From the NCBI RefSeq assembly GCF_001457595.1, contig NZ_LN831039.1, positions 5,040,001 to 5,072,000 of the forward strand: a DNA stretch of 32,000 nucleotides. The letters are read 5' to 3'. Numbering within the stretch: position 1 is the first letter of the stretch; every line of letters starts with the position of its first letter. A model generated the notes under the pieces. It searched no databases, was not told the origin of the DNA, and saw nothing but the letters and a program-made list of their open reading frames with translations. A program made the translations under genes and the position numbers. Of this stretch, positions 2,771 to 32,000 are shown piece by piece. Source of the DNA: Mycolicibacterium smegmatis (GTDB lineage Bacteria; Actinomycetota; Actinomycetes; Mycobacteriales; Mycobacteriaceae).

Positions 2771-4108
2771 TCAGTCCGGCAAGCCGGTCTGCGCGGCGGC
2801 CAAACGGGAGGCGATGGAACCGTCGATCACTTCGTCACCGACCGTGATCGACAGGCCACCGAGGAGTTCCGGGTCGACGTGGAGTTGCACGGACACCGGA
2901 CGGCCGTAGATGCGGGAGAGCACCTCGGTCAGACGCGTGCGCTGTGCGTCGCTGAGTTCGGCCGCGGCCGACACATGCGCCACAACCTCGCCTCGCCGGG
3001 ACACCGCGAGTTCGGCGAGATCGATGACGGCCTCGTCGGCGCGCTCGCCGCGGAGCAGTCCGACGGTCTGCGACAGCAGGGCCGCTGCCGTCTGGTTCAC
3101 GCCGGGGCGACCGGTGAGCGCCTTGTCCAGCAGCGCGACACGACCTTCCGCGGGGGTGGTGTAGTCGCTCAGCAGTGCCGACAGGCGCGGCTCGGCGTCG
3201 AGGACCCGGCCGAAGCGGAACAGCTGCTCCTCGACCTCGTCGACCTCACCGGCGATCTCGGCGCGCTTGAGCAGGGCCAGGCGTGCGGTGTGCTCGACGG
3301 CGTCGATCAGGTTCGACTCGGTCGACCAGCGGTTCGACACCGCGGTGCGCAGCAGGTCCAGCGTGGTGGCGCTGACCTTGTCCGACAGCAGACGCTCGAG
3401 CAGGCGCACCTTGGGAGCGCTGTCGTCGGTGGGCTCGGCCAGGTGCTTGTTGAGCGCGGTCTCGCTCAGCAGCAGCTTCGCGACCGAGGCCAGTTCGTCG
3501 GCGAGGTTGGTGAGCCCGTCGGCGTCGAGGCCGCCCGCGACCGAGTCGAACTTCTCGACCAGCGCCGCGAGCGATTGGCGGCTCGCGGCACGCAGCCGGC
3601 TCGTCGCGGCGGTGTCGATGACGACGCTCGACGGCGCCATCTGCTCGAGTTCGCTCAGGAAGCGGTCGACGGTGGCCGACTGTGCCTGCGGATCGGCGAC
3701 GTGCGCCCGGACGATCTCGGCGGCCTTGTTCACGGCCTCCGCGCCGAGCCCGGTGCGCAGCTGACGGATGAGCTGCTGGCGCATCAACTGGATCTGCTGT
3801 GCGCCTTGGGCCTTGATCCGCTCCGCCTCGGAGCCGGCCTGTTCGGACAGCTGCGCGGCGATGCGCTCGGAGTCCTGCTTGGCCTCCTCGGTGACCTTCT
3901 CCGACTCGGCCTTGGCGTCGGCAAGCGCCTTGGCGTGCATCGCGTCGGCATCAGCGAGCTTCTTGGCTGCCTCGGCACTCTCGGCGAGCGCCGCACGCAC
4001 GGCCTCCTGCTGGTTACGCATCAGGGTCCGTACGGGTGGCACCACCCACTTGACGATGATGAACGCGATGACGGCAAAGCCGATCAGCTGTCCGATGAAA
4101 ATCGACAT
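2771..4108 (-). CDS. atpH: ATP synthase b/delta fusion subunit (mycobacterial-type AtpH)
   Basis: 445-aa ORF. The N-terminus has a TM helix plus a b-like coiled coil ([27 protein letters not shown]...). The C-terminus is OSCP/delta-like ([10 protein letters not shown]...[27 protein letters not shown]). The start ATG directly abuts the atpF stop. Confidence 0.9.
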
Positions 4109-4621
4109 CTACTGTGTCCCACCTGAATTCACGTCGACGCCGAGGATCCTGCTGGCCAGCTTGGCTGACAGCCCGTCCACCGACGACTCGAGGCCACTGC
4201 GCACCTGATCACCCTGGGCGGACAACTGCTGGTCCGCCTGGGTCAGGGTCTGGGCCACCTCACCACTGGCTTGTGCACGCTTCTCGTCGACCACCGAGCG
4301 ACCGGCCGCGCGGGCCTCGTCGCGAAGCGCCGAGGCCTGGGCACGCGCCTCGGCCATTTCCTTCTCGTAGTCCGCCTGTGCCGCAGCGACCTGCTCGGCG
4401 GACTTGCGGTTGTCGGCTGCGGTCTTGGCCAGCATCGCTTCCCGCTCGGCCAGCACCTTGCTGATCGGTGGCACAACCCATTTCGAGATCACGCCGAGCA
4501 CGATCAAGAAAATGATCAGCACGGCGAAGAAGGTGCCGTTGGGGATCAGGAAGTTGCTTCCGCCCCCGCCTTCCTCGGCTGCCTGGCTGGCCGCCAGGAT
4601 CGTTGCGCTGAATTCACCCAT
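4109..4621 (-). CDS. atpF: F0 ATP synthase subunit b
   Basis: 170-aa ORF with a single N-terminal TM helix ([27 protein letters not shown]) followed by a charged, Ala-rich helix. Operon position fits. Confidence 0.9.
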
Positions 4622-4630
4622 GCCGGCGGA

Positions 4631-4936
<306 letters not shown>

Positions 4937-4992: not shown

Positions 4993-5769
4993 TCAGTGGT
5001 CCTCGTGGTCCAGTTCCATCGACTGGCTGAAGTACAGGATCGTCAGCAGCGAGAAGATGAAGGCCTGGATGAGGCCGACGAACAGGTCGAAGGTCTTCCA
5101 CACGGCGTTGGGGAACCACTGGATGTACCAGGGGAACATGGCGATCAGCGCGACCAGGATGCCGCCGGCGAAGATGTTGCCGAAAAGACGGAGGGCCAGC
5201 GAGATCGGCTTGGCGAGTTCTTCGACGATGTTGATCGGCGCGAGGAACGCGACGTGGCCCTTGACAACCTTGATCGGGTGGCCGACGATGCCGCGACGCC
5301 AGATGCCTGCCGCGTGGTAGCAGACGAACACGAACAGCGCGAGCGCCAGCACGAAGTTGATGTCGGAGGCGGGTGCCTTGTACAACTCGGCCGCGGCGCC
5401 GTCGGCTCCGCCGTACTGCAGCGGGAGCACCGCGAGCCAGTTGGAGATCAGGATGAACACGAAGATCGTCACCGACAGCGGCAGCACGAACGGGGCGATC
5501 TTCATGCCGATCGAGCCCTCGATCTGCTGACGCATCTGGATCGTCAGCGCCTCCCAGAACAGCTGCACACCGCTGGGCACCCCGGTGGAGGTGACCTTGG
5601 CCCGCAGGTAGAAGGCCAGCGCGATCACGATCACGGCGGTGACGGCAGTGGCGAGAATGGTGTCGCCATTGAACGTCATGCCGAACAGCTCGAACACGAG
5701 CGTGTGATGGCCGACGTGGATGGCTGCGCCACCCTCTTCAGCGGCCAGCACGGTCGTTGTCTGAGTCAT
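4993..5769 (-). CDS. atpB: F0 ATP synthase subunit a
   Basis: 258-aa polytopic membrane ORF containing the conserved [13 protein letters not shown] motif (essential Arg). Confidence 0.93.
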
Positions 5770-5779
5770 GGAGGTCAGC

Positions 5780-6226
5780 TCAACCCTTCGATTCCGTATC
5801 CAAGACGTCCAGGCCGGTCGAGCGGATCTTCCGCAGGACGGGGATGCTGGTGCTCATCACCAGCAGTGCCTGGAACACCGCCAGCCCGAACAGCACCGCG
5901 ATGCCGCCCGAACTCTTGAAGACAAACGCGATCGCGAGTGCGATCGCGGTGATGACGAGAAGACGGGTGGCCGAGTTGACGGCCATCTTCTTCTTGAGCG
6001 GGTGCTCCTCGGCCGTGATCGATTCGACGGCGCGACGCACGAGGAGGGCGTTGATCAAGCCCAGTCCCAGTCCGATGCCGAAGAACATGCCGAAGAGGAC
6101 GTGCCCGGTGAATCCGGCAGCAAGCAACGCAATGGCGGTGAGTGCGACGCAAACGACCAGCAAGCGCAGTGGCCGGAACGCCACCGACGGGAACACCAAC
6201 GGCGCATCGTGCGCTGGTGTCGTCAC
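5780..6226 (-). CDS. Small integral membrane protein at the head of the atp operon (AtpI-like, position of Rv1303 in M. tuberculosis)
   Basis: 148-aa ORF with about 4 TM segments, a GTG start preceded by GAGGTG, and a position immediately upstream of atpB. Confidence 0.7.
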
Positions 6227-6511
6227 TGATTCACCTCAATCCCGCTGTTACGGACGCAGAACCCTTGCTGGGGCATGGCTGCCTGGTAAAACCCTGTGCG
6301 TGCCCGACGAGCGTATCGGAGGGCGTTGGGCGCGCTGGAATCACCCAAGGGGTTAGCTCCCTTTGTCGGTCGTTTTTCGGCGCCGATCGGCTCTACGAAA
6401 TCCGATGGGCCGGGCCGGCAACCCGCGAGGTTTTTCGGGTTCTGCGAGCACGGTACCACATGGTAGGGACCCTAAAACCGCCCCTACTACTTTCCGTCGT
6501 ACTGAATCCGT

Positions 6512-7732
6512 TCACGGCTCCTGCGCACCGTCTGGACCGCGGCGCAACAGCGGGATCAGCGTGACCACGATCGCCACGACGATGGCCACTCCCATGACCA
6601 TCGCGGTCTGGCCCGGATCGAAGAAGATCGTGCTTGCCGCGCCGAACGCGATGATCCCGACCCACAGGTAGATCAGCAACACCGCGCGACGGTGGGAATG
6701 ACCGATCTGCAGCAACCTGTGGTGCAGGTGCATCTTGTCGGGACTCAGCGGGCTGCGGCCCGCGCGGGTGCGCCGCACGATCGCGAGCAGGGTGTCCAGC
6801 GCGGGCACCAGCATGACGGCGACCACCAGCAGGAACGGTGACAACAGTGCGAACACGTCGCGCGCGCCGTAGGCGTTCTGCGATATGGGGCCCGCGGCGG
6901 TGGTCGAGGCCGCGCCGAGCATCAGCCCGATCAGCATCGAACCCGAGTCGCCCATGAAGATCTTGGCGCGGTGGAAGTTGTGCGGCAGGAACCCCAGACA
7001 TGCGCCCGCGAGCACCACGGAGATCACCGCGGGCGGGTAGAACAGCACGTCGCCACCGTGGTCGCGCAGCAGACCCACCGAGAACACGCAGATGGCCAGT
7101 GCCGTGATGAGCCCGAGGCCGGCCGCGAGCCCGTCGAGGCCGTCGACGAAGTTCATCGCGTTGATGATCGACACGGTCAGCGCGAGCGTCAGCAGGATCG
7201 AGGAGACCTGGTCGAGCACGATCGTGCCCACTCCCCCGATCGGGATGTAGAGCACGCTCCACGCCACGCCCATGGTGACCAGCACGCTCGCGGCGGTGAT
7301 CTGGCCTGCGAACTTGGTCAGCGCGTCCAGGCCCCACCGGTCGTCGATCAGGCCGATCGCCATGATGAGCCCGCCCGCCACCACGACCGCGGGCATACCG
7401 GTCGAGTACACGAATCCGCGTGTCAGCGCGGGCAGTTGGGATGCCAGCAGCACCGCCGATGCGACGCCGATGTACATCGCGAGCCCGCCCATGCGGGGTG
7501 TGGGCTGCACGTGCACGTCGCGTTCGCGCGGGTAGGCCACGGCGCCGAAGCGGATCGCGAGCACCCGCACCCACCCCGTCGCGAAGTAGGTGATGATCGC
7601 GGCGGTGAGGCCCACAAGCGCCAGCTCACGCAGCGGAACGCCTGCGCCAGTGTCCGACAGCGCGAGGACCACCTGACTGTCCATGCCGGTCTCGCGGGTG
7701 GCCGTGATCACCGGAGCACCGTACTGCAGCAA
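6512..7732 (-). CDS. wecA: Decaprenyl-phosphate GlcNAc-1-phosphate transferase (WecA/Rfe, MraY-WecA family)
   Basis: 406-aa polytopic ORF with NFVDGLDGLAAG, IFMGDSGSMLIG and PDKMHLHHRLL motifs. It is collinear with my recollection of Rv1302. The start is apparently TTG. Confidence 0.9.
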   Translation of the reverse strand: MLQYGAPVITATRETGMDSQVVLALSDTGAGVPLRELALVGLTAAIITYFATGWVRVLAIRFGAVAYPRERDVHVQPTPRMGGLAMYIGVASAVLLASQLPALTRGFVYSTGMPAVVVAGGLIMAIGLIDDRWGLDALTKFAGQITAASVLVTMGVAWSVLYIPIGGVGTIVLDQVSSILLTLALTVSIINAMNFVDGLDGLAAGLGLITALAICVFSVGLLRDHGGDVLFYPPAVISVVLAGACLGFLPHNFHRAKIFMGDSGSMLIGLMLGAASTTAAGPISQNAYGARDVFALLSPFLLVVAVMLVPALDTLLAIVRRTRAGRSPLSPDKMHLHHRLLQIGHSHRRAVLLIYLWVGIIAFGAASTIFFDPGQTAMVMGVAIVVAIVVTLIPLLRRGPDGAQEP

Positions 7733-22055: not shown

Positions 22056-22131
22056 GCCCCCGTAGCTCAGGGGATAGAGCGTCTGCCTCCGGAGCAGAAG
22101 GCCGCAGGTTCGAATCCTGCCGGGGGCACCA
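22056..22131 (+). tRNA. tRNA-Arg, anticodon CCG, genomically encoded CCA
   Basis: Folded by hand. The acceptor stem is GCCCCCG/CGGGGGC. The D arm is GCTC-AGGGGATA-GAGC. The anticodon arm is TCTGC-CT CCG GA-GCAGA. The variable loop is AGGCC. The T arm is GCAGG-TTCGAAT-CCTGC, followed by the discriminator A and CCA. Confidence 0.95.
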
Positions 22132-22345
22132 CCTCAAAAACCGCCTCTCACCAGGAGATACGGTTTAATCCGACGGCCCTTCCCGGCAACCCTCAACAAT
22201 CATCGAACGATTTATCGCCTTCGCTGGAGTGTTGGATTCGTTAGCTGACTCCCACCCACCAGCCCTGGCGATTCGTTCGACGCTGCTGACAAGATCATGT
22301 GGAAGGATCGTCCGCGCCGAAGTACCGACGCCATGTGGGGGCCGA

Positions 22346-23935
22346 ATGAGCGATCCTATGCAAATCGCGCGACTTATTGATCGTGTGCTGCGTGGCGAAA
22401 TCCGCGTACCCGGCTTCCAGCGCGATTTCGTGTGGGAGCCCGACCGCGCAGCACTGTTGATGGATAGCATTTACAAGGAATATCCTTTTGGATCAATATT
22501 ACTGTGGCGAACTCGAAATCAATTGAAGACCGAGAAAAAGCTCGGAACGTTCGAGTTGCCCGAACCCGAAGCCGATTACCCCATCGACTACGTCCTCGAC
22601 GGACAACAACGAATCACATCAATATTCTCGACATTCCAAACCGTGCTGCCGCCATCTGACGAAGACCCAGAAGTATGGCTTCCGATATATTACGATTTCG
22701 GCGCTAAAGCGGACGCTCAAGACTCACAATTCCAAGCACTGTCGAAATCGCAAGTTGACGTTGCTAGACACTTTCCTCTGGCGGTGTTCTTTGACCCGGT
22801 TGAGTTCGCAGCGAAACAACGTGAATACGAACTTGACGACGATCGACTGAGAGAAATAGTAACCGTCCAATCTAGATTTTCTGGGGCCCTCATTCCGGTT
22901 GAGACTTTCTCGGGCGAGGATCGAACGAGCGTCGCCATAGTCTTCGAGCGGGTTAATCGGCAAGGCGTAAAACTCGACACTTTCCAACTGTTGACCGCAT
23001 GGACGTGGAGCGAGGAGTTTGATTTACAAGAGAAGTTCAAAGATCTGGCCGAACGTTTTGAGTCGTTCGGCTTTGAAGACATCGGCACGGATAACGATCT
23101 AATGTTGCGCTGCGCATCCGCCGTTTTGCGGGCAGACCCGTCGCCGACCGCATTGATCGACATCAATGGCGCAGAAGTTCGCGAGAAATTCGATGTGATC
23201 GTGAAGGCGCTCGACCGAACAGTCGACTACCTGAGAAATGAAATGCAAGTACGGCATCTCAAGTTTCTGCCGTACGCCGGTCTACTTATTCCACTTTGTG
23301 CGTACTTCTCCCGTAAACAGTCGACCGGCATCAGCGATGCGGACAATAGGGTCCTGCGACGATGGTTCTGGCGAACTACTTTCACCCATCGCTATAGCGG
23401 TAATCCGTCACGCAGCGTCAAGCGGGATGTAGAGGCCGCGATCGAATTGCGTGAAGGTAATGAGTCGTCGCTGGACAAGCTTGATGCCGAAATTGGGACG
23501 GACTTCTATCTTGGAAACACATTCAATAACCGAACTGTAGCTACTCGCGCCTTCATTTTGCAATTGGCGGCCCACTCCCCTAGATCGTTCATCAGTGGCG
23601 GAACGATCACACTGGACGACGTACTGTCTGAACCTAACCGACGCGAATACCACCATTGTTATCCGAAAGCGTATGTAGCCAACTCCGGGGCAACGTCGAT
23701 CTACGACGTCAACTGCCTTGCGAACTTTGCGTTTCTCAGCCGATCCGAAAACCGCGAGATTTCGGACAAAGCACCCTCGGTCTATCGCTCGCTCATGGCG
23801 GACAACGTAGACGACATCCTGGCCTCACAAGTCATTCATCAGAATCTGTTCAATGATGATTTCGACGAATTCCTGCGAGAACGCGCCCTGATGCTGGTGT
23901 TCGATGCGGGGAACTTGATGGACGTGAGTAACTGA
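22346..23935 (+). CDS. DUF262 (ParB/Srx-like NTPase) plus DUF1524-like His-Me finger nuclease; GmrSD-family type IV (modification-dependent) restriction candidate
   Basis: The N-terminus has IRVPGFQRDFVWEP and DYVLDGQQRITSI (DGQQR motif). The C-terminus has EYHHCYPKAY...NCLANFAFLSRSENREISDKAP (H-x-x-P ... N ... N pattern). The track ORF starts at 22229. I prefer the ATG at 22346 (MSDPMQIARLIDRV...) with a GGGGG run 5 nt upstream. The gene is AT-richer than the flanks. Confidence 0.85.
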   Translation: MSDPMQIARLIDRVLRGEIRVPGFQRDFVWEPDRAALLMDSIYKEYPFGSILLWRTRNQLKTEKKLGTFELPEPEADYPIDYVLDGQQRITSIFSTFQTVLPPSDEDPEVWLPIYYDFGAKADAQDSQFQALSKSQVDVARHFPLAVFFDPVEFAAKQREYELDDDRLREIVTVQSRFSGALIPVETFSGEDRTSVAIVFERVNRQGVKLDTFQLLTAWTWSEEFDLQEKFKDLAERFESFGFEDIGTDNDLMLRCASAVLRADPSPTALIDINGAEVREKFDVIVKALDRTVDYLRNEMQVRHLKFLPYAGLLIPLCAYFSRKQSTGISDADNRVLRRWFWRTTFTHRYSGNPSRSVKRDVEAAIELREGNESSLDKLDAEIGTDFYLGNTFNNRTVATRAFILQLAAHSPRSFISGGTITLDDVLSEPNRREYHHCYPKAYVANSGATSIYDVNCLANFAFLSRSENREISDKAPSVYRSLMADNVDDILASQVIHQNLFNDDFDEFLRERALMLVFDAGNLMDVSN

Positions 23936-23937
23936 AC

Positions 23938-24081
23938 GTGGGTACGGCCCGTCAGACCTCGAACAAGCCTTCCGCTTCCTCGGCTGCGGTGATCCGCGCG
24001 GCTCGTATCAACAACATCGGCACAGCCGGTCACGCACGACTGCACCGCCCACAGCGAGCGTTGCCGCGTGGCCGGTCATGA
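23938..24081 (+). CDS. Possible 47-codon ORF (GTG start 2 nt after the DUF262 stop) carrying the conserved peptide AVIRAARINNIGTAGHARLHRPQRALPRG; alternatively the 3' relic of a paralogue of the 29408-29876 ORF
   Basis: Read by hand: VGTARQTSNKPSASSAAVIRAARINNIGTAGHARLHRPQRALPRGRS*. Its 3' 86 nt match 29775-29860, with differences almost only at third codon positions. It is below the ORF-track size cutoff. Confidence 0.3.
   Translation: MGTARQTSNKPSASSAAVIRAARINNIGTAGHARLHRPQRALPRGRS
23969..24077 (+). repeat. Copy 1 of a dispersed direct repeat of about 110 nt (partner 29760-29871)
   Basis: Aligned by hand. The core 23986-24071 versus 29775-29860 gives 70 of 86 identical, ungapped. CTTCCGCT lies upstream and CCGGTC downstream in both copies. 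Confidence 0.85.
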
Positions 24082-25596
24082 GCCCGATTCGGCATCCGGT
24101 GAGTCAGCGTGCTCATTTTCGGCGTATAGGTTTTCGTCGGGCAAACCTGGCAAAAACGGGCCGTGATTCAAAATCATATCCTCAGGCACCTGGGCAAGGT
24201 GTTCGCGTGCCGATTGGCGCTGCTTAGGTGCCCTTCTTTTACTTGCTTTGACGGCGGCACGAAACTCGTCAAGCGTATAAATTGTATCGTCCGAGCCATA
24301 CATATAGTAGACCGGCGCCTTTTCTTCCATTCCGACCCGCTCGCCATTAACGGTTGCGCGATCATCAAGCATGATAAGCAACGGAACCTGGTAACCTACA
24401 ATGTATGAATGGTCCCAGTAGCGACCTTCATCCCAAGCATTATCAGCAAGCTGATCGTAATGGCCCATTAAGTCAACGACGTGCTGACGGCTCAAATATT
24501 CGCCAGAAGCGCGCCGTAAGAGAATGCGACGGCACGCATCACGCGCACCGTCGTGAAACGACCAGCAATAGAGCACAGCGGGGTACTTCTTATGAGGCAC
24601 CGTTTTGGCGATTGGTTCTGCGACTCGGATCTTTTTGTCATACTCCGCCACACGGGCGTAGCCCGCTTCGTCGATGAAACAGACACCGAGGTTAGCGCGC
24701 TTGAGCTCCTGTAAGAACTTCACACCACTAGTTTTCAGTGTAATTAGATTGAATTCCTTTACGTCATCTTCGTCTGCGCCAAACGGAGACACAAAATAGG
24801 CTGGCTCGGCATACTGTCCCATATCCTTAAGCAACGCTTTGTAAAGCCGCCGAAAGTTCCAGTCTTTAAGGGAGTATCCGACAAATACTAGTGTGCGGGT
24901 GGCTAGAAGCTCCGTCAGTAGCCCACCCAAGACACCTTCGCGCAACGACTTGAGACTTCGCTTGTAGTCACTTTCCGTCGCGACGATACTGCCGAGGTTT
25001 GTCATGCTTCCATGGATTTTCAAGACTCGGCGTCCGGGCATTTTCCATAGCGCGATGTCGTCACCCGTGACGAACGGAATAGCTGCACATTCTTCTTCGA
25101 AATACGTGTCCCAATTAGTAGTGACGATATCCTCTAGATAAGGCATGGCTGCTAGTTCCTGATGGAAACGTCGTGCGTAGTACCTAAGAGTCCAGAAGCT
25201 ATCGACGTAATCGAACTTCGCTCTTACCATCTGGATAAATTCGCGACGGCCAAATTTTTTCACGAATGCTTCAATAACCTCAGGGAAAGAACCGGGTTCG
25301 TCTAGCTGAAGCATTTCTACAGCACGCTGGTAGACCGTCTGCGGGAACACCGTAGGCACCTCGGTACTGATCCCAGCACCGGCGAAGATTACAACTTGTC
25401 GCATGTGGGCCGCACGCACCAGCTCTACGGGCAACTCGAAGTCATGATCGAGTCCACAGTGCGTGCATTGACAGATCTCTGCGTGCTGGGCACCGTCCCC
25501 AGCCCGAACTATCGCGCCTTCTCCCGCCATGTGTTCGATGGTCGCAGATGTACGGTTACTGGCTTCTGAGCGGCGCGCCTTTAGGCGTGCCGCCAT
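24076..25596 (-). CDS. SIR2_2-family (NAD+-consuming) domain protein with a C-terminal domain of about 200 aa that I cannot assign; candidate stand-alone abortive-infection effector
   Basis: Motifs present are VVIFAGAGIS (NAD-binding glycine motif), IVTTNWDTYFE (catalytic Asn), VLKIHGSMTNLGSIVATESDY (catalytic His) and LVFVGYSLKDWNFRRLY. An alternative start is the ATG at 25530 (MAGEGAIV...). The 25596 ATG lies in the GC-rich flank, inside the TauE-like remnant, so 25530 may be the native start. This is the most AT-rich stretch among the 60-nt lines I hand-counted. Confidence 0.85.
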   Translation of the reverse strand: MAARLKARRSEASNRTSATIEHMAGEGAIVRAGDGAQHAEICQCTHCGLDHDFELPVELVRAAHMRQVVIFAGAGISTEVPTVFPQTVYQRAVEMLQLDEPGSFPEVIEAFVKKFGRREFIQMVRAKFDYVDSFWTLRYYARRFHQELAAMPYLEDIVTTNWDTYFEEECAAIPFVTGDDIALWKMPGRRVLKIHGSMTNLGSIVATESDYKRSLKSLREGVLGGLLTELLATRTLVFVGYSLKDWNFRRLYKALLKDMGQYAEPAYFVSPFGADEDDVKEFNLITLKTSGVKFLQELKRANLGVCFIDEAGYARVAEYDKKIRVAEPIAKTVPHKKYPAVLYCWSFHDGARDACRRILLRRASGEYLSRQHVVDLMGHYDQLADNAWDEGRYWDHSYIVGYQVPLLIMLDDRATVNGERVGMEEKAPVYYMYGSDDTIYTLDEFRAAVKASKRRAPKQRQSAREHLAQVPEDMILNHGPFLPGLPDENLYAENEHADSPDAESGS

Positions 25597-25826
25597 ACGC
25601 GAATCGCTGAGAGCGCCAGCAGAGCGGCCAACAACGGCACGATGATCAGGCTCGGGATCACACCGAGAAGCAGAGCACCCACTACCGTCCCGGTGATCGA
25701 GCCAGCCGCCATGACGACCACAAAACGCATGTTGTGCCGCAGCACCACGAAACTCTGATCACGGCTGTGGGTCTGGACGCTACCGAAGAGACGCACTCTC
25801 GACACGTCGTCAGTAAGCCGTGGCAA
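25581..25826 (-). pseudogene. Remnant resembling the C-terminal TM hairpin of a TauE/SafE (DUF81) family permease
   Basis: RFVVVMAAGSITGTVVGALLLGVIPSLIIVPLLAALLALSAIRVW resembles a TauE C-terminus. No matching N-terminal 200 aa lies upstream, because that space is occupied by the 89-aa ORF. Confidence 0.4.
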
Positions 25827-26079
25827 TGCGCTTACCCGCCGTCACGCCGACGTAGTACTCCGCGCGGCGCTTGCGGGTCCGCAGCTTCACACCGGCCGAT
25901 ACGCCGTAGTACTCGCGGTTCGGACCGACGCGACCGAGCCGGACAGTGCTACCCGCCGAACCGCTGACATAGCGGGGACGGCGCGTCTTGATCTTGCGGG
26001 CAGTCCGCTTGACTGACGAGCCGCCGGTCGGAGCGAAGCGGCCTTTGCGGTCGCGCTTGTACGTCCGTCGTTTCGCCAT
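25810..26079 (-). CDS. Hypothetical 89-aa highly basic protein
   Basis: MAKRRTYKRDRKGRFAPTGG... has an internal EYY(G)V(S/T)AG(V)K duplication. Third-position GC is high, consistent with real coding. The ATG lies 3 nt after the stop of the 39-codon ORF upstream. Confidence 0.5.
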   Translation of the reverse strand: MAKRRTYKRDRKGRFAPTGGSSVKRTARKIKTRRPRYVSGSAGSTVRLGRVGPNREYYGVSAGVKLRTRKRRAEYYVGVTAGKRIATAY

Positions 26080-26082
26080 GGC

Positions 26083-26202
26083 TTAGTGCTTCCGTTTGCG
26101 CCGTGTGCGGCTCGCTGCGGCGTTTCCGACCTTGCTCGAACCCTTCGCCTTCGCCTGTCGTGCAAAGCGCTTCCGCGCTGCGGCCTGTTTCTTACTCGCC
26201 AT
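26083..26202 (-). CDS. Hypothetical 39-aa Lys/Arg-rich peptide
   Basis: Read by hand: MASKKQAAARKRFARQAKAKGSSKVGNAAASRTRRKRKH*. A GAAAGGA SD lies 6 nt upstream of the ATG. It is below the ORF-track cutoff. Confidence 0.35.
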   Translation of the reverse strand: MASKKQAAARKRFARQAKAKGSSKVGNAAASRTRRKRKH

Positions 26203-26212
26203 GGCGGTCCTT

Positions 26213-26345
26213 TCAATCGCTGAGCTTGATCGACGGTCCATCGGGCTTGCCCACGGTGCCCCGATTCACTTTCACGCGCGTTTCCCCCTTAGCCTCGATC
26301 CACCGATGAATTGGCTGGTCGCAGGGTGTCGTGACGAGGAAAGTG
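26213..26345 (-). pseudogene. 3' fragment of a minus-strand gene, apparently truncated by the IS1380-family insertion
   Basis: The frame reads ...TFLVTTPCDQPIHRWIEAKGETRVKVNRGTVGKPDGPSIKLSD* with about 70% GC3. The frame runs open into the IS with no plausible start codon. Confidence 0.3.
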
Positions 26346-27949
26346 CCTTCTGAGCTGTGATGATGAGTGTTCTCTAGGCACTTATCGGCACAACTTCGAA
26401 AGGCACTTCCGGTGAAAGTGTCCCATAGGTTCGCTGCGTCGTCGGCGGTCTTCGATGATGCCCATCTCGTGTCGTGCGCCGGTCTGGTGCCGGTAATGAC
26501 GCTGGCCACCCAGACCGGACTGTCACAGTTGCTGGCCGACAAGGTTCGTATCAGCGAACCACGGATCAAGTCCGGGTCGGCCAACCCGTCGCCGAAGCTG
26601 CTCACCGTGGTCGCCGGAATGTGCGCCGGCGCCGACAGCATTGATGACCTCGACCTCGTGCGTGGCGGCGGGATGAAGACGCTCTTCGATGGGGTCTATG
26701 CACCATCGACGATCGGAACACTGTTGCGGGAGTTCACCTTCGGACACGCCCGGCAGTTGGAGTCGGTCCTGCGTCATCATCTGGCCGCACTCTGTGCGCG
26801 GGTGGACCTGCTGCCCGGATCCGACACGGGGGCGTTCATCGACATCGACTCACTGCTGCGCCCGGTCTATGGCCACGCCAAACAGGGTGCCTCCTACGGG
26901 CATACCAAGATCGCTGGTAAGCAGGTTCTGCGTAAAGGGCTCTCCCCGTTGGCGACGACGATCAGCACCCCCGGAGCGGCGCCGGTGATCGCCGGGATGC
27001 GGCTGCGCGCCGGTAAGACCAGTTCCGGGAAGGGTGCGGGCCGCATGGTCGCCCAAGCCATCGCCACCGCCCGCGCCGCCGGCGTGCGCGGGCAACTGCT
27101 GGTGCGTGGCGATTCGTCCTACGGCACCCGGTCGGTGGTGGGCGCCTGCCGAGCCCACAATGCGCACTTCTCGGTGGTGATGACCCGCAATACCGCGGTT
27201 GATCGGGCCATCAGTTCGATCGACGAGCAGGCCTGGGAGCCGGTCAACTATCCCGGTGCAGTGCGTGATCCCGACACCGGTGACTGGATTTCTGATGCCG
27301 AGGTCGCCGAGGTCAGCTACACCGCCTTCGCCTCTACCAAAGATCGGTTCACCGCGCGGTTGGTGGTGCGGCGAGTCAAAGACGCGAGATTTCGGGACGC
27401 GCTGTTCCCGGTGTGGCGGTATCACCCGTTCTTCACCAACACAGACTTGCCGACCGCCGAGGCTGACATCACCCACCGCCAGCACGCGATCATCGAAACC
27501 GTCTTCGCCGATCTGATCGACGGACCCCTGGCCCACATGCCCTCAGGACAGTTCGGTGCCAACAGTGCGTGGGTGTTGTGCGCGGCGATCGCGCACAACC
27601 TGCTGCGCGCCGCCGGCGTGCTCGCAGGAGGTGCCCACGTGGTTGCCCGCGGCGCGACGCTGCGCCGCAAGATCGTCAACATTCCCGCCCGTCTGGCCCG
27701 ACCCCAGCGTCGACCGATCCTGCACCTCCCCGAGCACTGGCCCTGGACAGAGCACTGGCTCACGTTGTGGCGCAACACCATCGGATACAGCCCACCGCTA
27801 CCGGCAACGACCTGACCAACGCGCCGAACAGGCCCAACCGGAGCACACAGGAAAAGCTGGGCAGACCAGCAACTACCGCATGCCCGCAACACCGAACGCA
27901 GCAGAAACCACACACGGACACCTCAAGGAGGGCCGCTCCACGGATTCAG
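26346..27949 (+). mobile_element. IS1380-family insertion sequence (boundaries approximate)
   Basis: It holds a single transposase ORF. The right end is tentatively ...CCACGGATTCAGG (reverse complement CCTGAATCCGTGG, a CC-initiated terminus as I recall for this family). I could not find a convincing matching left inverted repeat or a target duplication. Confidence 0.5.
26367..27815 (+). CDS. IS1380-family DDE transposase
   Basis: 482-aa ORF. SSAVFDDAHLVSCAGLVPVMTLATQTGL...MCAGADSIDDLDLVRGGGM...FGHARQL...VRGDSSYG...HRQHAIIETVFADLIDGPLAHMPSGQFGANSAW matches actinobacterial IS1380-family transposases as I recall them. In-frame GTGs at 26412 and 26418 are alternative starts. Confidence 0.9.
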   Translation: MFSRHLSAQLRKALPVKVSHRFAASSAVFDDAHLVSCAGLVPVMTLATQTGLSQLLADKVRISEPRIKSGSANPSPKLLTVVAGMCAGADSIDDLDLVRGGGMKTLFDGVYAPSTIGTLLREFTFGHARQLESVLRHHLAALCARVDLLPGSDTGAFIDIDSLLRPVYGHAKQGASYGHTKIAGKQVLRKGLSPLATTISTPGAAPVIAGMRLRAGKTSSGKGAGRMVAQAIATARAAGVRGQLLVRGDSSYGTRSVVGACRAHNAHFSVVMTRNTAVDRAISSIDEQAWEPVNYPGAVRDPDTGDWISDAEVAEVSYTAFASTKDRFTARLVVRRVKDARFRDALFPVWRYHPFFTNTDLPTAEADITHRQHAIIETVFADLIDGPLAHMPSGQFGANSAWVLCAAIAHNLLRAAGVLAGGAHVVARGATLRRKIVNIPARLARPQRRPILHLPEHWPWTEHWLTLWRNTIGYSPPLPATT

Positions 27950-27962
27950 GCTTAGTGATCGG

Positions 27963-28060
27963 GTGGTAGTCGCGCGCCTGGCCCGCATCGCCGCTCAACT
28001 CACCGGGACCGACACGTCTAGGTTCGCCTCGCATCGCCGAATCCAGCGCAACCGCCAGCG
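27963..28060 (+). pseudogene. 5' part of a plus-strand ORF interrupted by the IS3-family element (continues at 29408)
   Basis: VVVARLARIAAQLTGTDTSRFASHRRIQRNRQR has very high GC3. Its reading frame (position mod 3 = 0) is the same as that of the ORF resuming at 29409. Confidence 0.35.
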
Positions 28061-28088
28061 TGAAACGCCCTGGGTTTCCCGGAGGCTC
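28061..28088. repeat. IS3-family terminal inverted repeat (orfB-proximal end)
   Basis: See the mobile-element entry. 25 of 28 match to the reverse complement of 29380-29407. Confidence 0.9.
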
Positions 28089-28091
28089 GGG

Positions 28092-28931
28092 CTATTGGAT
28101 TCCGATCAAGGGTTGGTCGGTCCGGTATGCATCGTAGAACGCAGCTTCGAACTCGGCAGGTGGGATGTCGCCGAGGTAGCTGTGTAGTCGGCTGGTGTTG
28201 TGCCAGTAGACCCAGCTGAGCGTCGCCAACTCGACGTCTTCGACGGTTTTCCATGGCCCGGTGCGGGCGGGGCCGTAGATCAGTTCGGCCTTGTAGTAGC
28301 CGTTGACCGTCTCCGCGAGAGCGTTGTCGAAACTGTCCCCGACGGTCCCGATTGACGGGACTGCGCCGATCTCAGCGAGCCTTTCCCCGTAGCGAATGGA
28401 GGTGAATTGCGACCCGGCATCCGAGTGACATCTCAAGCCTGGCAACATATTTCCACGTGACCACCGCGCCATCTCCAACGCGTCGAGCACCATCGAGGTC
28501 CGCATATGCGAGGCTACCCGCCAGCCCACGATCATCCGCGAATACGCGTCGATGATGAAGCACACATACGCCACCCCGGCCCAGGTCGGCACGAACGTCA
28601 GGTCGGTCACCCAGAGCTGGTTCGGGGCGGTCGCGGTGAAGTTGCGCTTCACCAAATCCGGATGCCGGGCCGCGGCCGGGTCGGGTTTGGTGGTGCGGAC
28701 CCGTTTGCCGCGCCGGACTCCCTCGATGCCGGCGGCCCGCATCAGCCGGGCCACCTGATCCCGGCCGACGTCATGACCCTCGCGGCGGGCGGTTTTCCAG
28801 AGCTTGCGGGCCCCATAGACGCAGTAGTTGTCTTTCCAGAGCTGACACAACGCCGGCCCCAGGACGGCGTCCCGCAGGGCCCGCGCCGACGGGACCCGGG
28901 CTTTGGTGTCGTAGTAGGTGCTCAGGGCCAC
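28092..28931 (-). CDS. IS3-family transposase OrfB (DDE catalytic domain), probably made as an OrfAB fusion by -1 frameshifting
   Basis: The DDE triad context is present: WVTDLTFV, CHSDAGSQFTS, NALAETVNGYYKAE. The orfB frame has no stop across at least the last 40 codons of orfA. Confidence 0.9.
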   Translation of the reverse strand: MALSTYYDTKARVPSARALRDAVLGPALCQLWKDNYCVYGARKLWKTARREGHDVGRDQVARLMRAAGIEGVRRGKRVRTTKPDPAAARHPDLVKRNFTATAPNQLWVTDLTFVPTWAGVAYVCFIIDAYSRMIVGWRVASHMRTSMVLDALEMARWSRGNMLPGLRCHSDAGSQFTSIRYGERLAEIGAVPSIGTVGDSFDNALAETVNGYYKAELIYGPARTGPWKTVEDVELATLSWVYWHNTSRLHSYLGDIPPAEFEAAFYDAYRTDQPLIGIQ

Positions 28932-29008
28932 CTGCAGGCCTGCGCTGCGCAGGACGGTGCAGATGGGCTCGACCCCGAACTCCTCGCGATTGGCGTCGAT
29001 GAACTCGA

Positions 29009-29353
29009 CTATTTCTTGTGTTGGCGGTCGAGCTCCGCCCCGAAGAAACTCGCTGCACGTTTCAGAATCTCGTTGGCGCGCTTGAGTTCTCGATTCTCCT
29101 GCTCGAGCTCCTGCACCCTTTTCGACTCCGCGGTCGTCACCCCGGGTGCCAGGCCTTCGTCGATGTCGGCCTGACGGACCCAGGTGCGCACCGATTCCAC
29201 TCCGTAGCCGAGCTGGCGAGCAACGCGCTGCACCGTGCCCTGCTCGGTGCCCAGCTCCGCCCGGAGCGTGCGGACCATCCGTACCGCGGCGGCCTTCTCC
29301 TCGGCACTGTATCGACGCGTCGTGGGTTTCCCGGGCGACTGTTCCTTCGGCAT
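29009..29353 (-). CDS. IS3-family transposase OrfA (HTH plus leucine zipper)
   Basis: 114-aa ORF with RRYSAEEKAAAVRMV...VQRVARQLGYGVESVRTWVRQ (HTH) and a heptad region VQELEQENRELKRANEILKRA. Confidence 0.9.
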   Translation of the reverse strand: MPKEQSPGKPTTRRYSAEEKAAAVRMVRTLRAELGTEQGTVQRVARQLGYGVESVRTWVRQADIDEGLAPGVTTAESKRVQELEQENRELKRANEILKRAASFFGAELDRQHKK

Positions 29354-29379
29354 ACCTGCATCCTCGTTTCCAAGGTCAG

Positions 29380-29407
29380 GAGCCTCCGGGATTTCCAGGG
29401 CGTTTCA
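29380..29407. repeat. IS3-family terminal inverted repeat (orfA-proximal end)
   Basis: See the mobile-element entry. Confidence 0.9.
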
Positions 29408-29876
29408 GCTCGACCGGGGTGGTTTGGGAGCCAAGACCGAAATCGAACTCAGCGCCAAGCCGTACGAACAGCTTTTGGACAAGATGCCGAAGTTGCAAAG
29501 CGGCAGCCGCGCCGAGTGGCGACGCTCCCAAGGCATCGCAGACGATTCCGACAAACCCCCACCCGCCCTGGTGGCTGCCAACGCTGACGAGCCGGTCGAC
29601 GTCGAGATCGTCTCAGAGAGCGATCAACAAAACGACGCCCACCCGATGACACCAGAGGATGACGATTGGCAGCCAGACGAAGCCACCGGGCCGGGAATCG
29701 ACGGCTACGACGATCAACCGAACCCGTTCGGCGAGAGCGACCCACCGCCTGACGGCTTGCTTCCGCTCGATGAGGCGGTGATCCGTGCCGCTCGCATAAA
29801 TAACATGGGCACCGCTGGGCATGCGAGACTGCACCGACCGCAGCGGGCGTTGCCACGTGGTCTCTCCGGTCGGTAA
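29408..29876 (+). pseudogene. 3' part of the IS3-interrupted ORF; an acidic, Pro-rich protein ending in the conserved basic peptide
   Basis: ...AKTEIELSAKPYEQLLDKMPKLQSGSRAEWRR...DDDWQPDEATGPGIDGYDDQPNPFGESDPPPDGLLPLDEAVIRAARINNMGTAGHARLHRPQRALPRGLSGR*. GC3 is about 70%. An internal ATG (MPKLQSG...) could still give a truncated product. Confidence 0.45.
29760..29871 (+). repeat. Copy 2 of the dispersed direct repeat of about 110 nt (partner 23969-24077)
   Basis: See copy 1. Here it forms the last 30 or so codons of the 29408-29876 ORF. Confidence 0.85.
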
Positions 29877-29908
29877 CCCGGCAGGGTCAAAACCTGCCGG
29901 GAAACACC
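29877..29908 (+). other. Hairpin CCCGGCAGG-gtcaaaa-CCTGCCGGG resembling the T-arm/acceptor 3' half of the tRNA-Arg; candidate relic att site, or simply a terminator hairpin
   Basis: 29881-29901 (GCAGGGTCAAAACCTGCCGGG) versus tRNA positions 22104-22124 (GCAGGTTCGAATCCTGCCGGG) gives 18 of 21 identical, including a 7-nt loop. CACC follows in both, with a 1-nt offset. Confidence 0.4.
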
Positions 29909-30011
29909 TGATTATGCAGGTCAAACCGTTGCACCCGAAGCGCTCAACAATGATTCACGCATCCGGTGCAGATGGGAAATTGGAATTTCCCTATGGCTCA
30001 ACTGTTTTCGG

Positions 30012-30989
30012 TCATGGACCGTCTCTGCGCGGCTGCACCCCAAAGAACGCGCCCCCACCCGAACCCGGTTGATTGTCAAAGCCGGTGTAGTCAAAAGTGA
30101 TTCCGTTTGTGTCCCACCCGCCAGGGTTGCCGATGGACGGACCCCAAATCCCGCCAGGCATCATGACGTAAGGTGTTGAAACCGTGAGCCTTTCGGCGAA
30201 CTGATCGAGCATGTCGGGTTCCTGTTGCCGCGCTTTCTCGAATAGCTCCGCTTGGCGTTGGCGGTCACTGATGTAAAGCCCGGTTCGGATCGCTTGGCCG
30301 GGCTTGTCGAGCACGACAGTCATCACGTTGTCGCCCACCTTGTCTGTGAGCGCGCTCGTTTCCAGTACGGCGTCCCTGAGAATGTCCCTCACTTGGTCGG
30401 GGACTTCATCGGCGGGGCAACTGAGCGCAGTCAATCGTGCCTTCGCACGGTCGATGATCGGGTTATTCACCATACCAACAGCATCGATGTAGAACGCTTT
30501 GAATTGCTGTGTATCAGGCCGCATTTCGATGCTTGTGACCGAATCACCTTGGGCCTTAGTGCGAAACATTACCTTGGTTACCATGCCGTCTTTGCGTTGC
30601 ACACCTGACGCGAGAACGATTGTCGCACGCTTCTTTTCACTGGCTAGCAGATGTGAGTAAGCGTCTCGCAGCGCGTTCTCCACGCGGTTGCGAATCTCTC
30701 GGTAATGCAAGTCCGGTGGCGGCTGCCAGAACGTCATCATGGCGGGCGCAAGCTCGTCGTATCCGCTGATCGCTTCTGCGATGAGTCGATCAGTCGGCTT
30801 GCCGTCGAGAAACGCCAGCCCGGTATAGCCCAGCACGACCCAACAGTCGATGCCCAGAACTACAACGGTCTTGTTGCTGTGCGGATCGTATTCGCCGGTT
30901 GGATTATCTGGCGTCGGCTCGACGCTAACGAATCGGTCGCTCGCATGGAACGCCCAATTTCCCACGACTGCGGCGACGATCAGCGTCAT
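30012..30989 (-). CDS. Hypothetical 325-aa protein, translationally coupled to the integrase; the N-terminus is reminiscent of Ntn-hydrolase/proteasome-beta/HslV folds
   Basis: The ATG overlaps the integrase TGA (ATGA at 30986-30989). The N-terminus is M-TLIVAAVVGNWAFHASDRFVS...SNKTVVVLGIDCWVVLGYTG. That gives Thr directly after the initiator Met, Asp at position 17 from that Thr, and a Lys-containing strand about 39 residues in. The C-terminal tail is Gly-rich. I recognise no other motif. Confidence 0.75.
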   Translation of the reverse strand: MTLIVAAVVGNWAFHASDRFVSVEPTPDNPTGEYDPHSNKTVVVLGIDCWVVLGYTGLAFLDGKPTDRLIAEAISGYDELAPAMMTFWQPPPDLHYREIRNRVENALRDAYSHLLASEKKRATIVLASGVQRKDGMVTKVMFRTKAQGDSVTSIEMRPDTQQFKAFYIDAVGMVNNPIIDRAKARLTALSCPADEVPDQVRDILRDAVLETSALTDKVGDNVMTVVLDKPGQAIRTGLYISDRQRQAELFEKARQQEPDMLDQFAERLTVSTPYVMMPGGIWGPSIGNPGGWDTNGITFDYTGFDNQPGSGGGAFFGVQPRRDGP

Positions 30990-32000
30990 GCCGACACGCC
31001 CACGCTGGCTGCCAACGTATCGGCCCGCAACGCCGAGAGAGCGTCGGCAACGGCGATGTCACGGCCCGACACCTGTTGCTGATAGATCAGGCTGGCTTTG
31101 TGGGTGGAATGCCGCAGCCGCGCCATCGTCTCGACCAGGTTGCCGACCTGAGCCGTCATGGTGCCCGCGAAGTGACGCAGATCGTGCACCCGCATATCGT
31201 TGTGCCCAACTGCACTCAGCGCCGGTTTGAAAACGTCTTTGGCGAACACCCGATCATTGACGTGGCACCCGCCGCGCGCGGGCGTGAACAGAAGCGAATC
31301 ACCCGCTTTATCAACGTGATTGGCTAGGTGCGCTCTTATGTCATCCCGAATGTGTGGAGGGATCACCACCTTGGCGGGCTTGCCGTCTTTAGGCGTGTCG
31401 ATGATGCATTCGCCGCTTCGGTGGGTTACACCACGCGCCACCGTGACCACAGTGCAATCGGCATCGAAGTCTTTTCGGCGCAGCTCCGACACTTCCCCGT
31501 ACCGCAGGCCGCACCACGCAGAAATCAACACCAGGGCGCGGAAGCGGGCGTTTTTGGTGTCGCCACCCAACTTGTCGGCAATGGCCTCAAGCTCGGGAAT
31601 CGTTGGCACAACGGCCTGGCGCTTGGTCTTCGGGTTCATTGCCCGTTCGATCATGCAGGGGTTGCGCTCAATCAATCCGTCTCGTACGGCGGTATTGCAA
31701 ACCATGTTGAGCAAACCGTACGCGTGAGCGTTGCGCGTCGGGTGCGTCGAGCCGAGGCCGGAGAACCACGTCCGCACCAAAGCAGGACTCAGGTCACGAA
31801 CCGCGTACTTGCCGAGCTTGGGCGCGATGTAGTTCGTCAGCGACGCCTCATAACCGATTCGGGTTCGCGGTTTGAGGTTGCGTTCACTGATCACCGCTTT
31901 CGCGTATTCGGCGACGGTGACCGCCACGGCCTTATTTTCCTCGGTGATCACTTCGGGCGGTTTCCACGACGACAGTCCCTCATCGCTCGCCGCGCACCGG
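30986..32000 (-). CDS. int: Tyrosine recombinase / phage-type integrase (the 5' end may extend beyond the window)
   Basis: The catalytic signature is present: CGLRYGEVSELRR (Arg I), VHDLRHFAGT (H-x-x-R) and RLRHSTHKASLIYQQ (His ... Tyr nucleophile). The frame stays open from the GTG at 31951 to position 32000. Confidence 0.92.
   Translation of the reverse strand, partial: RCAASDEGLSSWKPPEVITEENKAVAVTVAEYAKAVISERNLKPRTRIGYEASLTNYIAPKLGKYAVRDLSPALVRTWFSGLGSTHPTRNAHAYGLLNMVCNTAVRDGLIERNPCMIERAMNPKTKRQAVVPTIPELEAIADKLGGDTKNARFRALVLISAWCGLRYGEVSELRRKDFDADCTVVTVARGVTHRSGECIIDTPKDGKPAKVVIPPHIRDDIRAHLANHVDKAGDSLLFTPARGGCHVNDRVFAKDVFKPALSAVGHNDMRVHDLRHFAGTMTAQVGNLVETMARLRHSTHKASLIYQQQVSGRDIAVADALSALRADTLAASVGVSA

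Follow-up and report, generated by a model that had tools for sequence, protein, structure and literature searches.

A SIR2 family protein of Mycolicibacterium smegmatis with an uncatalogued helical C-terminal domain, a candidate one-gene anti-phage system

The stretch of DNA that we analysed (the window) comprises 32,000 nucleotides (nt) of Mycolicibacterium smegmatis, positions 5,040,001 to 5,072,000 of contig NZ_LN831039.1 in assembly GCF_001457595.1. Its content of guanine and cytosine (GC) is about 0.68 over positions 1-22000; beginning just after a tRNA-Arg(CCG) gene, a low-GC block (about 0.53) extends to about position 25560. The order of features is argS, tRNA-Arg, a DUF262/GmrSD_N gene, a 140-bp high-GC segment and, convergent with the DUF262 gene, a gene for a SIR2 family protein; then follow a TauE-like fragment, a small basic open reading frame (ORF), two insertion sequence (IS) elements, an ORF of 325 amino acids (aa) and a tyrosine integrase. 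The SIR2 gene is the subject of this article. It encodes a SIR2 domain followed by a C-terminal domain (CTD), and we call the protein and its family SIR2-CTD. The family is uncharacterised, widespread and horizontally mobile, and joins a defence-type SIR2 to an uncatalogued helical domain. Judged from sequence, it is a good candidate for a one-gene anti-phage system.

The gene and its two domains

The ORF at 24076..25596 on the minus strand encodes 506 aa, and the motifs that the first-pass annotation had quoted from it (FAGAGISTEV, VTTNWDTYF, VLKIHGSMT, VGYSLKDWNF, GVCFIDEAGYARV, YWDHSYIVGYQVPLLIMLDD and YYMYGSDDTIYTLDEF) are all found in its translation. That annotation had also suspected the 5' end of being an artefact, and the homologues bear this out. 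M23 of the long ORF, encoded by the ATG at 25530, is the first aligned residue in all of them (alignments with n=42 and n=98). Further, the nucleotide homology to the corresponding cassette of Mycobacterium sp. NAZ190054 ends at 25550, 20 nt upstream of this ATG, hence the ATG at 25596 lies outside the conserved cassette. Going by these alignments, the true start is almost certainly the ATG at 25530, which gives a protein of 484 aa, and the 22-codon extension upstream of it (GC 0.606, against 0.521 for the gene) is probably not translated. The protein is 100% identical to a 'SIR2 family protein' of NCBI, which holds it in versions of 484, 506 and 458 aa, and several M. smegmatis assemblies carry the same protein sequence. 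Residue numbers below refer to the 484-aa version unless the 506-aa ORF is named. The gene is not uniquely the most AT-rich stretch, given that the adjacent DUF262 gene has a GC content of 0.517 (the core genome has 0.68).

The N-terminal part of the protein is readily assigned. Pfam reports SIR2_2 (PF13289) at residues 157-278 of the 506-aa ORF, with an E value of 5.9e-21 and 75.5 bits against a cut-off of 24.5. It reports SIR2_2 alone, since neither the canonical sirtuin profile PF02146 nor the AbiH profile gives a match at E<=0.1. The SIR2_2 hallmarks GAGIS, TTNWD, KIHGS and GYSLKD, previously read by eye, are indeed all present; the window protein also has N139, H173, the GAG loop (G51, G53) and D223, none of which varies among the aligned relatives (151/151). 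When the full-length model is compared with the Protein Data Bank (PDB) by Foldseek, all structures returned are anti-phage NAD+-hydrolysing enzymes (NADases), namely KomC (9v0g, 9xvc), BcThsA (8bto) and DSR2 (8wkn and others), with E values of about 1e-9, a probability of 1.0 and about 275-330 aligned columns, which correspond to the SIR2 half. A sequence search of the PDB likewise leads to DSR2 and KomC.

Three cysteines and a histidine are also well conserved, namely C22 (136/151), C25 (139/151), C148 (134/151) and H123 (143/151). The first two form an N-terminal CxxC, often CxCxxC, that precedes the GAGIS loop, while the other two lie within the SIR2 domain. From this pattern of conservation, the four residues may constitute a structural zinc site that ties the N-terminus to the SIR2 domain.

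The remainder of the protein is the novel part. It had been described as an unrecognisable C-terminus of about 200 aa, and we found no match for it in Pfam, PADLOC, NCBIfam, PHROGs, the PDB sequences or, by Foldseek, the PDB and viral structures. The last 204 residues have no Pfam match even at E<=10, a CTD profile searched against PDB sequences reaches a best E value of only 1.1, and the matches in PADLOC, NCBIfam and PHROGs are confined to the SIR2 core. The check that had been suggested for this region, AlphaFold followed by Foldseek, was carried out and gave a confident model with no significant structural match. The full-length AlphaFold2 (AF2) model, built on 98 homologues, has a predicted local distance difference test (pLDDT) score of 90 and a predicted template-modelling (pTM) score of 0.87, values that indicate a fixed two-domain arrangement in the model; for the CTD modelled alone they are 89 and 0.84. 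In these models the CTD has four long helices followed by a small beta element, another pair of helices and the conserved HxPFL segment, and its predicted basis is a four-helix bundle. Foldseek of the CTD model gave no significant match (best E 2.9 in the PDB and 1.8 in BFVD), the top entries being generic helical bundles. The expectation that this is not a SLOG domain is supported by the models, in which it is helical, and by Foldseek, where the CTD on its own has no match among ThsA chains.

The CTD defines a family. Among the 151 sequences the conserved positions are P317, Y/F325, D327, G328, G343, Y358, Y376, G379, P406 and H456; the window protein carries P317, D327-G328, G343, Y376, G379 and H456, and matches the CTD profile at about 280-460. 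Divergence is faster in the CTD than in the SIR2 domain, with mean pairwise identities of 44% versus 58% among close relatives and 27% versus 42% among distant ones.

Distribution, neighbours and known SIR2 systems

A word-indexed protein search returned 321 relatives, most of them covering 87-95% of the query. A profile made from the CTD alone, scored against 1.84 billion representatives, found 337 clusters (at 50% identity) with E<=1e-3, 255 of them with E<=1e-10. Among the best 150 of the 337 clusters, the full-length members are all 420-510 aa long with the CTD at about 270-460, and the remainder are fragments. In 53 distant members that we scanned with PADLOC profiles the SIR2 domain was always present (53/53). 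The best E values there were 1.2e-24 for ThsA and 4.2e-23 for PDC-S25, both over the SIR2 core, and none of the 53 scores as a true member of any PADLOC family. SIR2 plus CTD is thus the only architecture, at about 440-500 aa, in every member that could be inspected. One apparent second architecture, P0184, in which an N-terminal domain with an IDGNHR motif precedes the CTD, was rejected as evidence of domain shuffling: its halves are each 98% identical to separate proteins, which makes it a chimera of two adjacent genes.

A scan with the full-length alignment confirmed 149 relatives in 185,579 species genomes of the Genome Taxonomy Database (GTDB), and nearly all of the 80 listed match query residues from about 20 to 460. 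They are spread over at least 10 phyla, archaea included, with members in Actinomycetota, Pseudomonadota, Bacillota, Bacteroidota, Planctomycetota, Acidobacteriota, Chloroflexota, Patescibacteria, Bathyarchaeota and Nitrosopumilaceae. The gene looks foreign almost everywhere. In 62/62 loci (those among L001-L089 with at least 5 kb of flank) it has a lower GC content than the flanks, by 11.3 GC points on average; the flanks of the loci listed range from 41% to 74% GC.

No recurrent partner emerges from the neighbourhoods. We clustered all ORFs within 3.5 kb of the gene over 84 loci, and the largest cluster covers 6 loci, which is sphingomonad synteny in the thiC neighbourhood; integrases occur in 5-6 loci. 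This agrees with the earlier description of a candidate single-gene system, in that SIR2-CTD stands alone and no neighbour family recurs beyond lineage synteny. Phage_integrase, with 6 of the 146 nearest neighbours, is the most frequent Pfam family, and defence genes account for a few more (type IV restriction, PDC-S22, PD-T4-6, PbeA, mad3, AbiEii-type AAA and PIN). Single loci add to the picture. One SIR2-CTD gene sits at the end of a BREX system, adjoining BrxL; another, on the mobilisable 24-kb plasmid pCGR2 of C. glutamicum, lies beside a 1000-aa N6 DNA methylase. DUF222 proteins and serine recombinases are found near the gene in Nocardioides and Blastococcus, serine-recombinase elements elsewhere, and an Xre-type regulator upstream of it in one locus. 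In Clostridiales the order is type I restriction-modification (RM) genes hsdM-hsdS, a DndB-like gene, SIR2-CTD, and then SLFN/AlbA_2 or Fic. In our opinion, this genomic context fits defence in a way that is suggestive but not decisive.

Two side observations belong here. In Clostridiales metagenome contigs (L091, at 3790-4836, L092 and L093) SIR2-CTD lies in type I RM loci right after a 500-aa DndB-like/DGQHR gene, and on one contig the N-terminal half of that gene is fused in frame to the CTD half, as a result of either a deletion or an assembly chimera. In Mycobacterium sp. 21AC1 (L001) a 375-aa protein with a faint SIR2_2 signal is encoded at 5466-6593, about 1.4 kb upstream of SIR2-CTD, and an integrase fragment lies between the two.

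It is useful to compare the protein with the SIR2 systems that it most resembles. Like ThsA of Thoeris, it has an N-terminal SIR2 NADase domain with the same catalytic Asn and His, a similar total size (about 475 aa) and the layout of an effector with a regulatory part, and among the PADLOC profiles ThsA scores best for the family. However, the C-terminus of ThsA is a SLOG/STALD domain while that of SIR2-CTD is helical, the Foldseek alignments to BcThsA and SeThsA extend over 297-332 columns, consistent with the SIR2 part only, and no ThsB/TIR gene is present among the scanned ORFs of the window or as a recurrent neighbour family in the 84 loci. DSR1 and DSR2 are also single-gene SIR2 defences; they detect a phage protein through a helical region outside SIR2, and DSR2 is the closest sequence match in the PDB (8k98, query residues 57-285 of the 506-aa ORF). 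Yet these proteins have 1000-1250 aa with long HEAT-like sensors, and SIR2-CTD is, as had been stated, far smaller at 484 aa; its NCBIfam scores are 22.6 bits for Dsr2 and 11 for Dsr1 against a cut-off of 1400, and its CTD matches no DSR2 chain by Foldseek in the PDB. The SIR2 domain finds its best structural match in KomC of Kongming (9v0g and 9xvc, template-modelling score 0.66-0.77 on the target), but KomC is a bare SIR2 of 264 aa that works with KomA, KomB and a dITP signal, whereas SIR2-CTD has an extra domain.

PDC-S25, a single-gene SIR2 candidate of PADLOC with 517-528 profile positions, gives the best PADLOC E value for the window protein (7e-15), but 107/517 profile positions align (139-245, the SIR2 core) and the non-SIR2 parts are unrelated. 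Neither HerA, KomA/KomB nor short prokaryotic Argonaute (pAgo) partners are present in the window, and none recurs in the 84 loci. The lactococcal AbiH is likewise a compact single-gene abortive-infection protein that has been reported as sirtuin-like (PMC13064643), but it represents a different family, as the Pfam result above indicates. By the defining tests of each family considered (ThsA, DSR1/2, PDC-S25, SIR2-HerA, Kongming, SPARSA, AbiH and canonical sirtuins), SIR2-CTD falls outside all of them. What is new is the uncatalogued accessory domain, and the SIR2 NADase effector itself is of a known type.

The island at tRNA-Arg(CCG)

The coordinates of the gene, its domains and its surroundings are collected in the table.

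Features of the SIR2-CTD gene and of the tRNA-Arg island in the window
Feature	Position	Strand	Details
tRNA-Arg(CCG)	22056..22131	+	left boundary of the low-GC, phage-derived variable island
DUF262/GmrSD_N protein	22346..23935	+	529 aa as annotated; Pfam GmrSD_N E 1.6e-27
Cassette (remnant and SIR2-CTD gene)	23986..25550		81.6% nt identity to the tRNA-Arg island of Mycobacterium sp. NAZ190054 (L010)
3' coding remnant of terminase-small-subunit-like gene ('conserved spacer')	23986..24071	+	..AVIRAARINNIGTAGHARLHRPQRALPRG..
Terminator-like hairpin	24018..24047	-	29 nt downstream of the SIR2 stop codon; consensus scan only
SIR2-CTD gene	24076..25530	-	484 codons, stop at 24076-24078; identical to NCBI UGT74650.1, 'SIR2 family protein [Mycolicibacterium smegmatis]'
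Family-specific CTD	24121..24675	-	residues ~286-470, ~185 residues; AF2 models and conservation counts
SIR2_2 (defence-type sirtuin) domain	24676..25425	-	residues ~36-285; Pfam and Foldseek
KIHGS, SIR2 domain motif	25012-25014	-	codon of H173
C148 codon	25087-25089	-
TTNWD, SIR2 domain motif	25114-25116	-	codon of N139
H123 codon	25162-25164	-
GAGIS loop, SIR2 domain motif		-	G51, G53, S55
GYSLKD, SIR2 domain motif		-	D223
N-terminal motif H16..C20-x-C22-x-x-C25..F31..P34	25429..25485	-	conservation among 151 sequences
C22 and C25 codons	25456-25467	-
22-codon upstream extension of the ORF	25531..25596	-	no homologue aligns; overlaps TauE-like remnant; outside the cassette
TauE-like membrane-protein fragment	25581..25826	-	upstream of SIR2 gene; below Pfam cut-off (26.5 bits vs 32.6)
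Basic ORF, 89 aa	25810..26079	-	upstream of SIR2 gene
IS element DDE_Tnp_1_4	26367..27815
IS element rve/IS3	28092..28931
Second remnant copy	29775..29860		86-nt direct repeat, 81% nt identity
325-aa ORF	30012..30989	-	no Pfam/PHROG match; translationally coupled to the integrase
Tyrosine integrase	30986..31951

The SIR2 gene reads toward a short segment that had been taken for a conserved spacer. The conservation is real, but the segment is not a spacer. Both of its copies in the window can be read in frame (..AVIRAARINN[I/M]GTAGHARLHRPQRALPRG..) and give the same peptide of 29-30 aa, while they differ by 16 synonymous and 2 nonsynonymous codons. In-frame reading together with mostly synonymous differences indicates that the segment is the 3' remnant of a gene, and this gene encoded a protein similar to the terminase small subunit. 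An intact relative of 302 aa adjoins SIR2-CTD in Mycobacterium sp. NAZ190054 (L010, 4965..5873), where it matches terminase small subunit phrog_10899 with an E value of 2e-8. A phage major head protein (phrog_3990, E 1e-90) is also encoded at this locus, which again lies at tRNA-Arg/argS. The copy at 24 kb in the window seems to be an orphan remnant, the body of the gene having been replaced by the low-GC DUF262 gene.

The region past tRNA-Arg(CCG)/argS (positions 22132-32000 of the window, and loci L010 and L012) is a variable, phage-derived hotspot in several mycobacteria, and in M. heidelbergense the SIR2-CTD gene lies about 1.6 kb from a tRNA-Arg fragment. The slots beside SIR2-CTD differ between species, DUF262 occupying them in the window and other genes in L010. 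Given the terminase-like gene and the head protein at tRNA-Arg/argS, we regard SIR2-CTD as cargo of this tRNA-Arg-linked mycobacterial hotspot of phage origin. A repeat of the 3' end of tRNA-Arg, as expected for an att site, was not found in the window, and a general repeat search in the cassette gave pairs at chance level only.

The other genes of the island require less comment. The DUF262/GmrSD_N gene matches PADLOC PDC-M55C over its full length (E 3e-60), and no other PDC-M55 component is found near it; it is probably an independent defence gene of the type IV-restriction kind and not a conserved partner of SIR2-CTD. The 89-aa basic ORF is 65% identical to an ORF of Mycobacterium sp. 21AC1 (L001, 7749-7937) that lies 49 nt upstream of SIR2-CTD, and is absent in all other loci, the closest one included. 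Because it is shared with one other Mycobacterium only, it is not a partner of the family. The N-terminal region of the 325-aa ORF resembles, as judged by eye from the translations, that of a 357-aa ORF beside the SIR2 gene in L010 (2429-3502, minus strand). Since the 325-aa ORF occupies the slot convergent with the terminase-like gene, which elsewhere is the slot of SIR2, it may be another cargo or defence candidate.

Possible function and alternatives

SIR2 NADases are a recurrent effector in prokaryotic immunity. To our knowledge, every SIR2 immune system described so far needs either a large sensor, as DSR1/2 and Avs5 do, a signalling partner, as in Thoeris and Kongming, or the help of a complex (HerA, pAgo). 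From homology and context we infer an NADase activity, a phage phenotype and a sensor role of the CTD, and our analysis favours, with a probability of roughly 0.6, a single-gene, ligand-activated NADase that aborts infection. SIR2-CTD would then work alone, as sensor and effector in one abortive-infection protein. In the uninfected cell the CTD, packed tightly on the SIR2 domain, would keep the enzyme off. On infection a phage-derived cue, either a protein or a small molecule, would engage the faster-evolving CTD, and a rearrangement or oligomerisation, as in ThsA, DSR2, Avs5 and KomC, would open the SIR2 active site (N139/H173). NAD+ would be hydrolysed and the infected cell would no longer support phage growth. 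Such activation has precedents in the filaments of ThsA and KomC, the tetramers of DSR2 and in Avs5. A more specific version holds that the CTD is an undescribed, self-contained sensor fold. It would recognise a phage component, or a small molecule specific to infection, without an intermediary and would switch on the attached SIR2 NADase; this we advance tentatively, at a little short of even odds.

Several observations weigh against this proposal. Instead of a sensor, the CTD might be a scaffold for structure or oligomerisation. Many immediate neighbours of the gene are housekeeping genes (enolase, ribosomal S2, ThiC, Cpn60) and a handful are recognised defence genes. No match by nucleotide or protein was obtained in 50,697 phage genomes (INPHARED), and a consensus scan upstream of the window gene found no promoter-like site. 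The literature that we searched contains no description of the family and no experimental datum on any member.

The evidence can also be read differently. The protein might have no immune role and act instead as a sirtuin-like protein deacylase or an ADP-ribosyltransferase, or it might serve mobile elements as a selfish toxin or maintenance factor; its CTD would then select a cellular substrate. Some sources do label relatives 'NAD-dependent protein deacylase', the housekeeping neighbours would agree with such a role, and the plasmid-borne family member adjoins a relaxase. We nevertheless consider this unlikely, given that the matches are to SIR2_2 and defence NADases and not to canonical PF02146, that the spread is patchy (149/185,579 species) and the GC content strongly foreign, and that RM, BREX and GmrSD-like genes as well as phage-derived islands are repeatedly found next to the gene. 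It is quite unlikely, in our opinion, that SIR2-CTD is an orphan effector whose CTD receives a nucleotide-type second messenger produced from another part of the genome, by comparison with Thoeris, CBASS and Kongming; in that case the protein itself would not sense phage. The invariant polar and aromatic residues D327, Y358, Y376 and H456 are compatible with a pocket for a small ligand, and ThsA is the best PADLOC profile (E 1.2e-24) and, with KomC, among the closest structures. However, the CTD is all-helical and not SLOG/STALD, and while the genes for signal-producing partners are normally adjacent, no TIR, cyclase or KomA/KomB-type gene recurs near the gene in the 84 loci.

A partner of another kind is suggested by the ParB-fold proteins, of the DUF262/GmrSD-like or DndB-like type, with which SIR2-CTD might form a two-gene system. 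The window gene is tail-to-tail with the DUF262 gene, in Clostridiales a DndB-like gene for 500 aa lies 10-70 nt upstream on the same strand, and the fusion mentioned above joins DndB-like and SIR2-CTD genes on one contig. Yet the two genes in the window converge, which makes them separate transcription units, and in the closest homologue, L010, another gene takes that position. Of the other loci examined, further Firmicute loci among them, none has a DUF262 or DndB-like gene except L065, with a distant copy. Between the two DndB-like genes the identity is only 28%. We consider this arrangement very unlikely, and a DndB/DUF262 partner was rejected as a general rule. Finally, it is highly improbable that the window gene is a decaying, non-functional remnant of a degraded island. 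The island is indeed full of IS elements and of TauE-like and terminase-like fragments, the annotation of the start was uncertain and the failure to find a promoter-like site also points that way, but the ORF is of full length in comparison with 150 homologues, every invariant position of the family is kept, and the protein recurs unchanged in several M. smegmatis assemblies.

New SIR2 fusions are no longer surprising per se. If the CTD is indeed a self-contained sensor fold that switches on the SIR2 NADase, SIR2-CTD would be the most compact stand-alone SIR2 sensor-effector immune protein (about 450 aa), occurring across many bacterial phyla and some archaea, and a sense-and-kill protein of 450 residues would offer both a minimal model of SIR2 gating and a new sensor fold. 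The family is experimentally convenient, with members in M. smegmatis and on a small plasmid of C. glutamicum, and the very large mycobacteriophage collections make it practical to map the trigger by escape mutants. The finding is also relevant to treating mycobacteria with phages, where host range is shaped by strain-specific defence islands like the tRNA-Arg hotspot.

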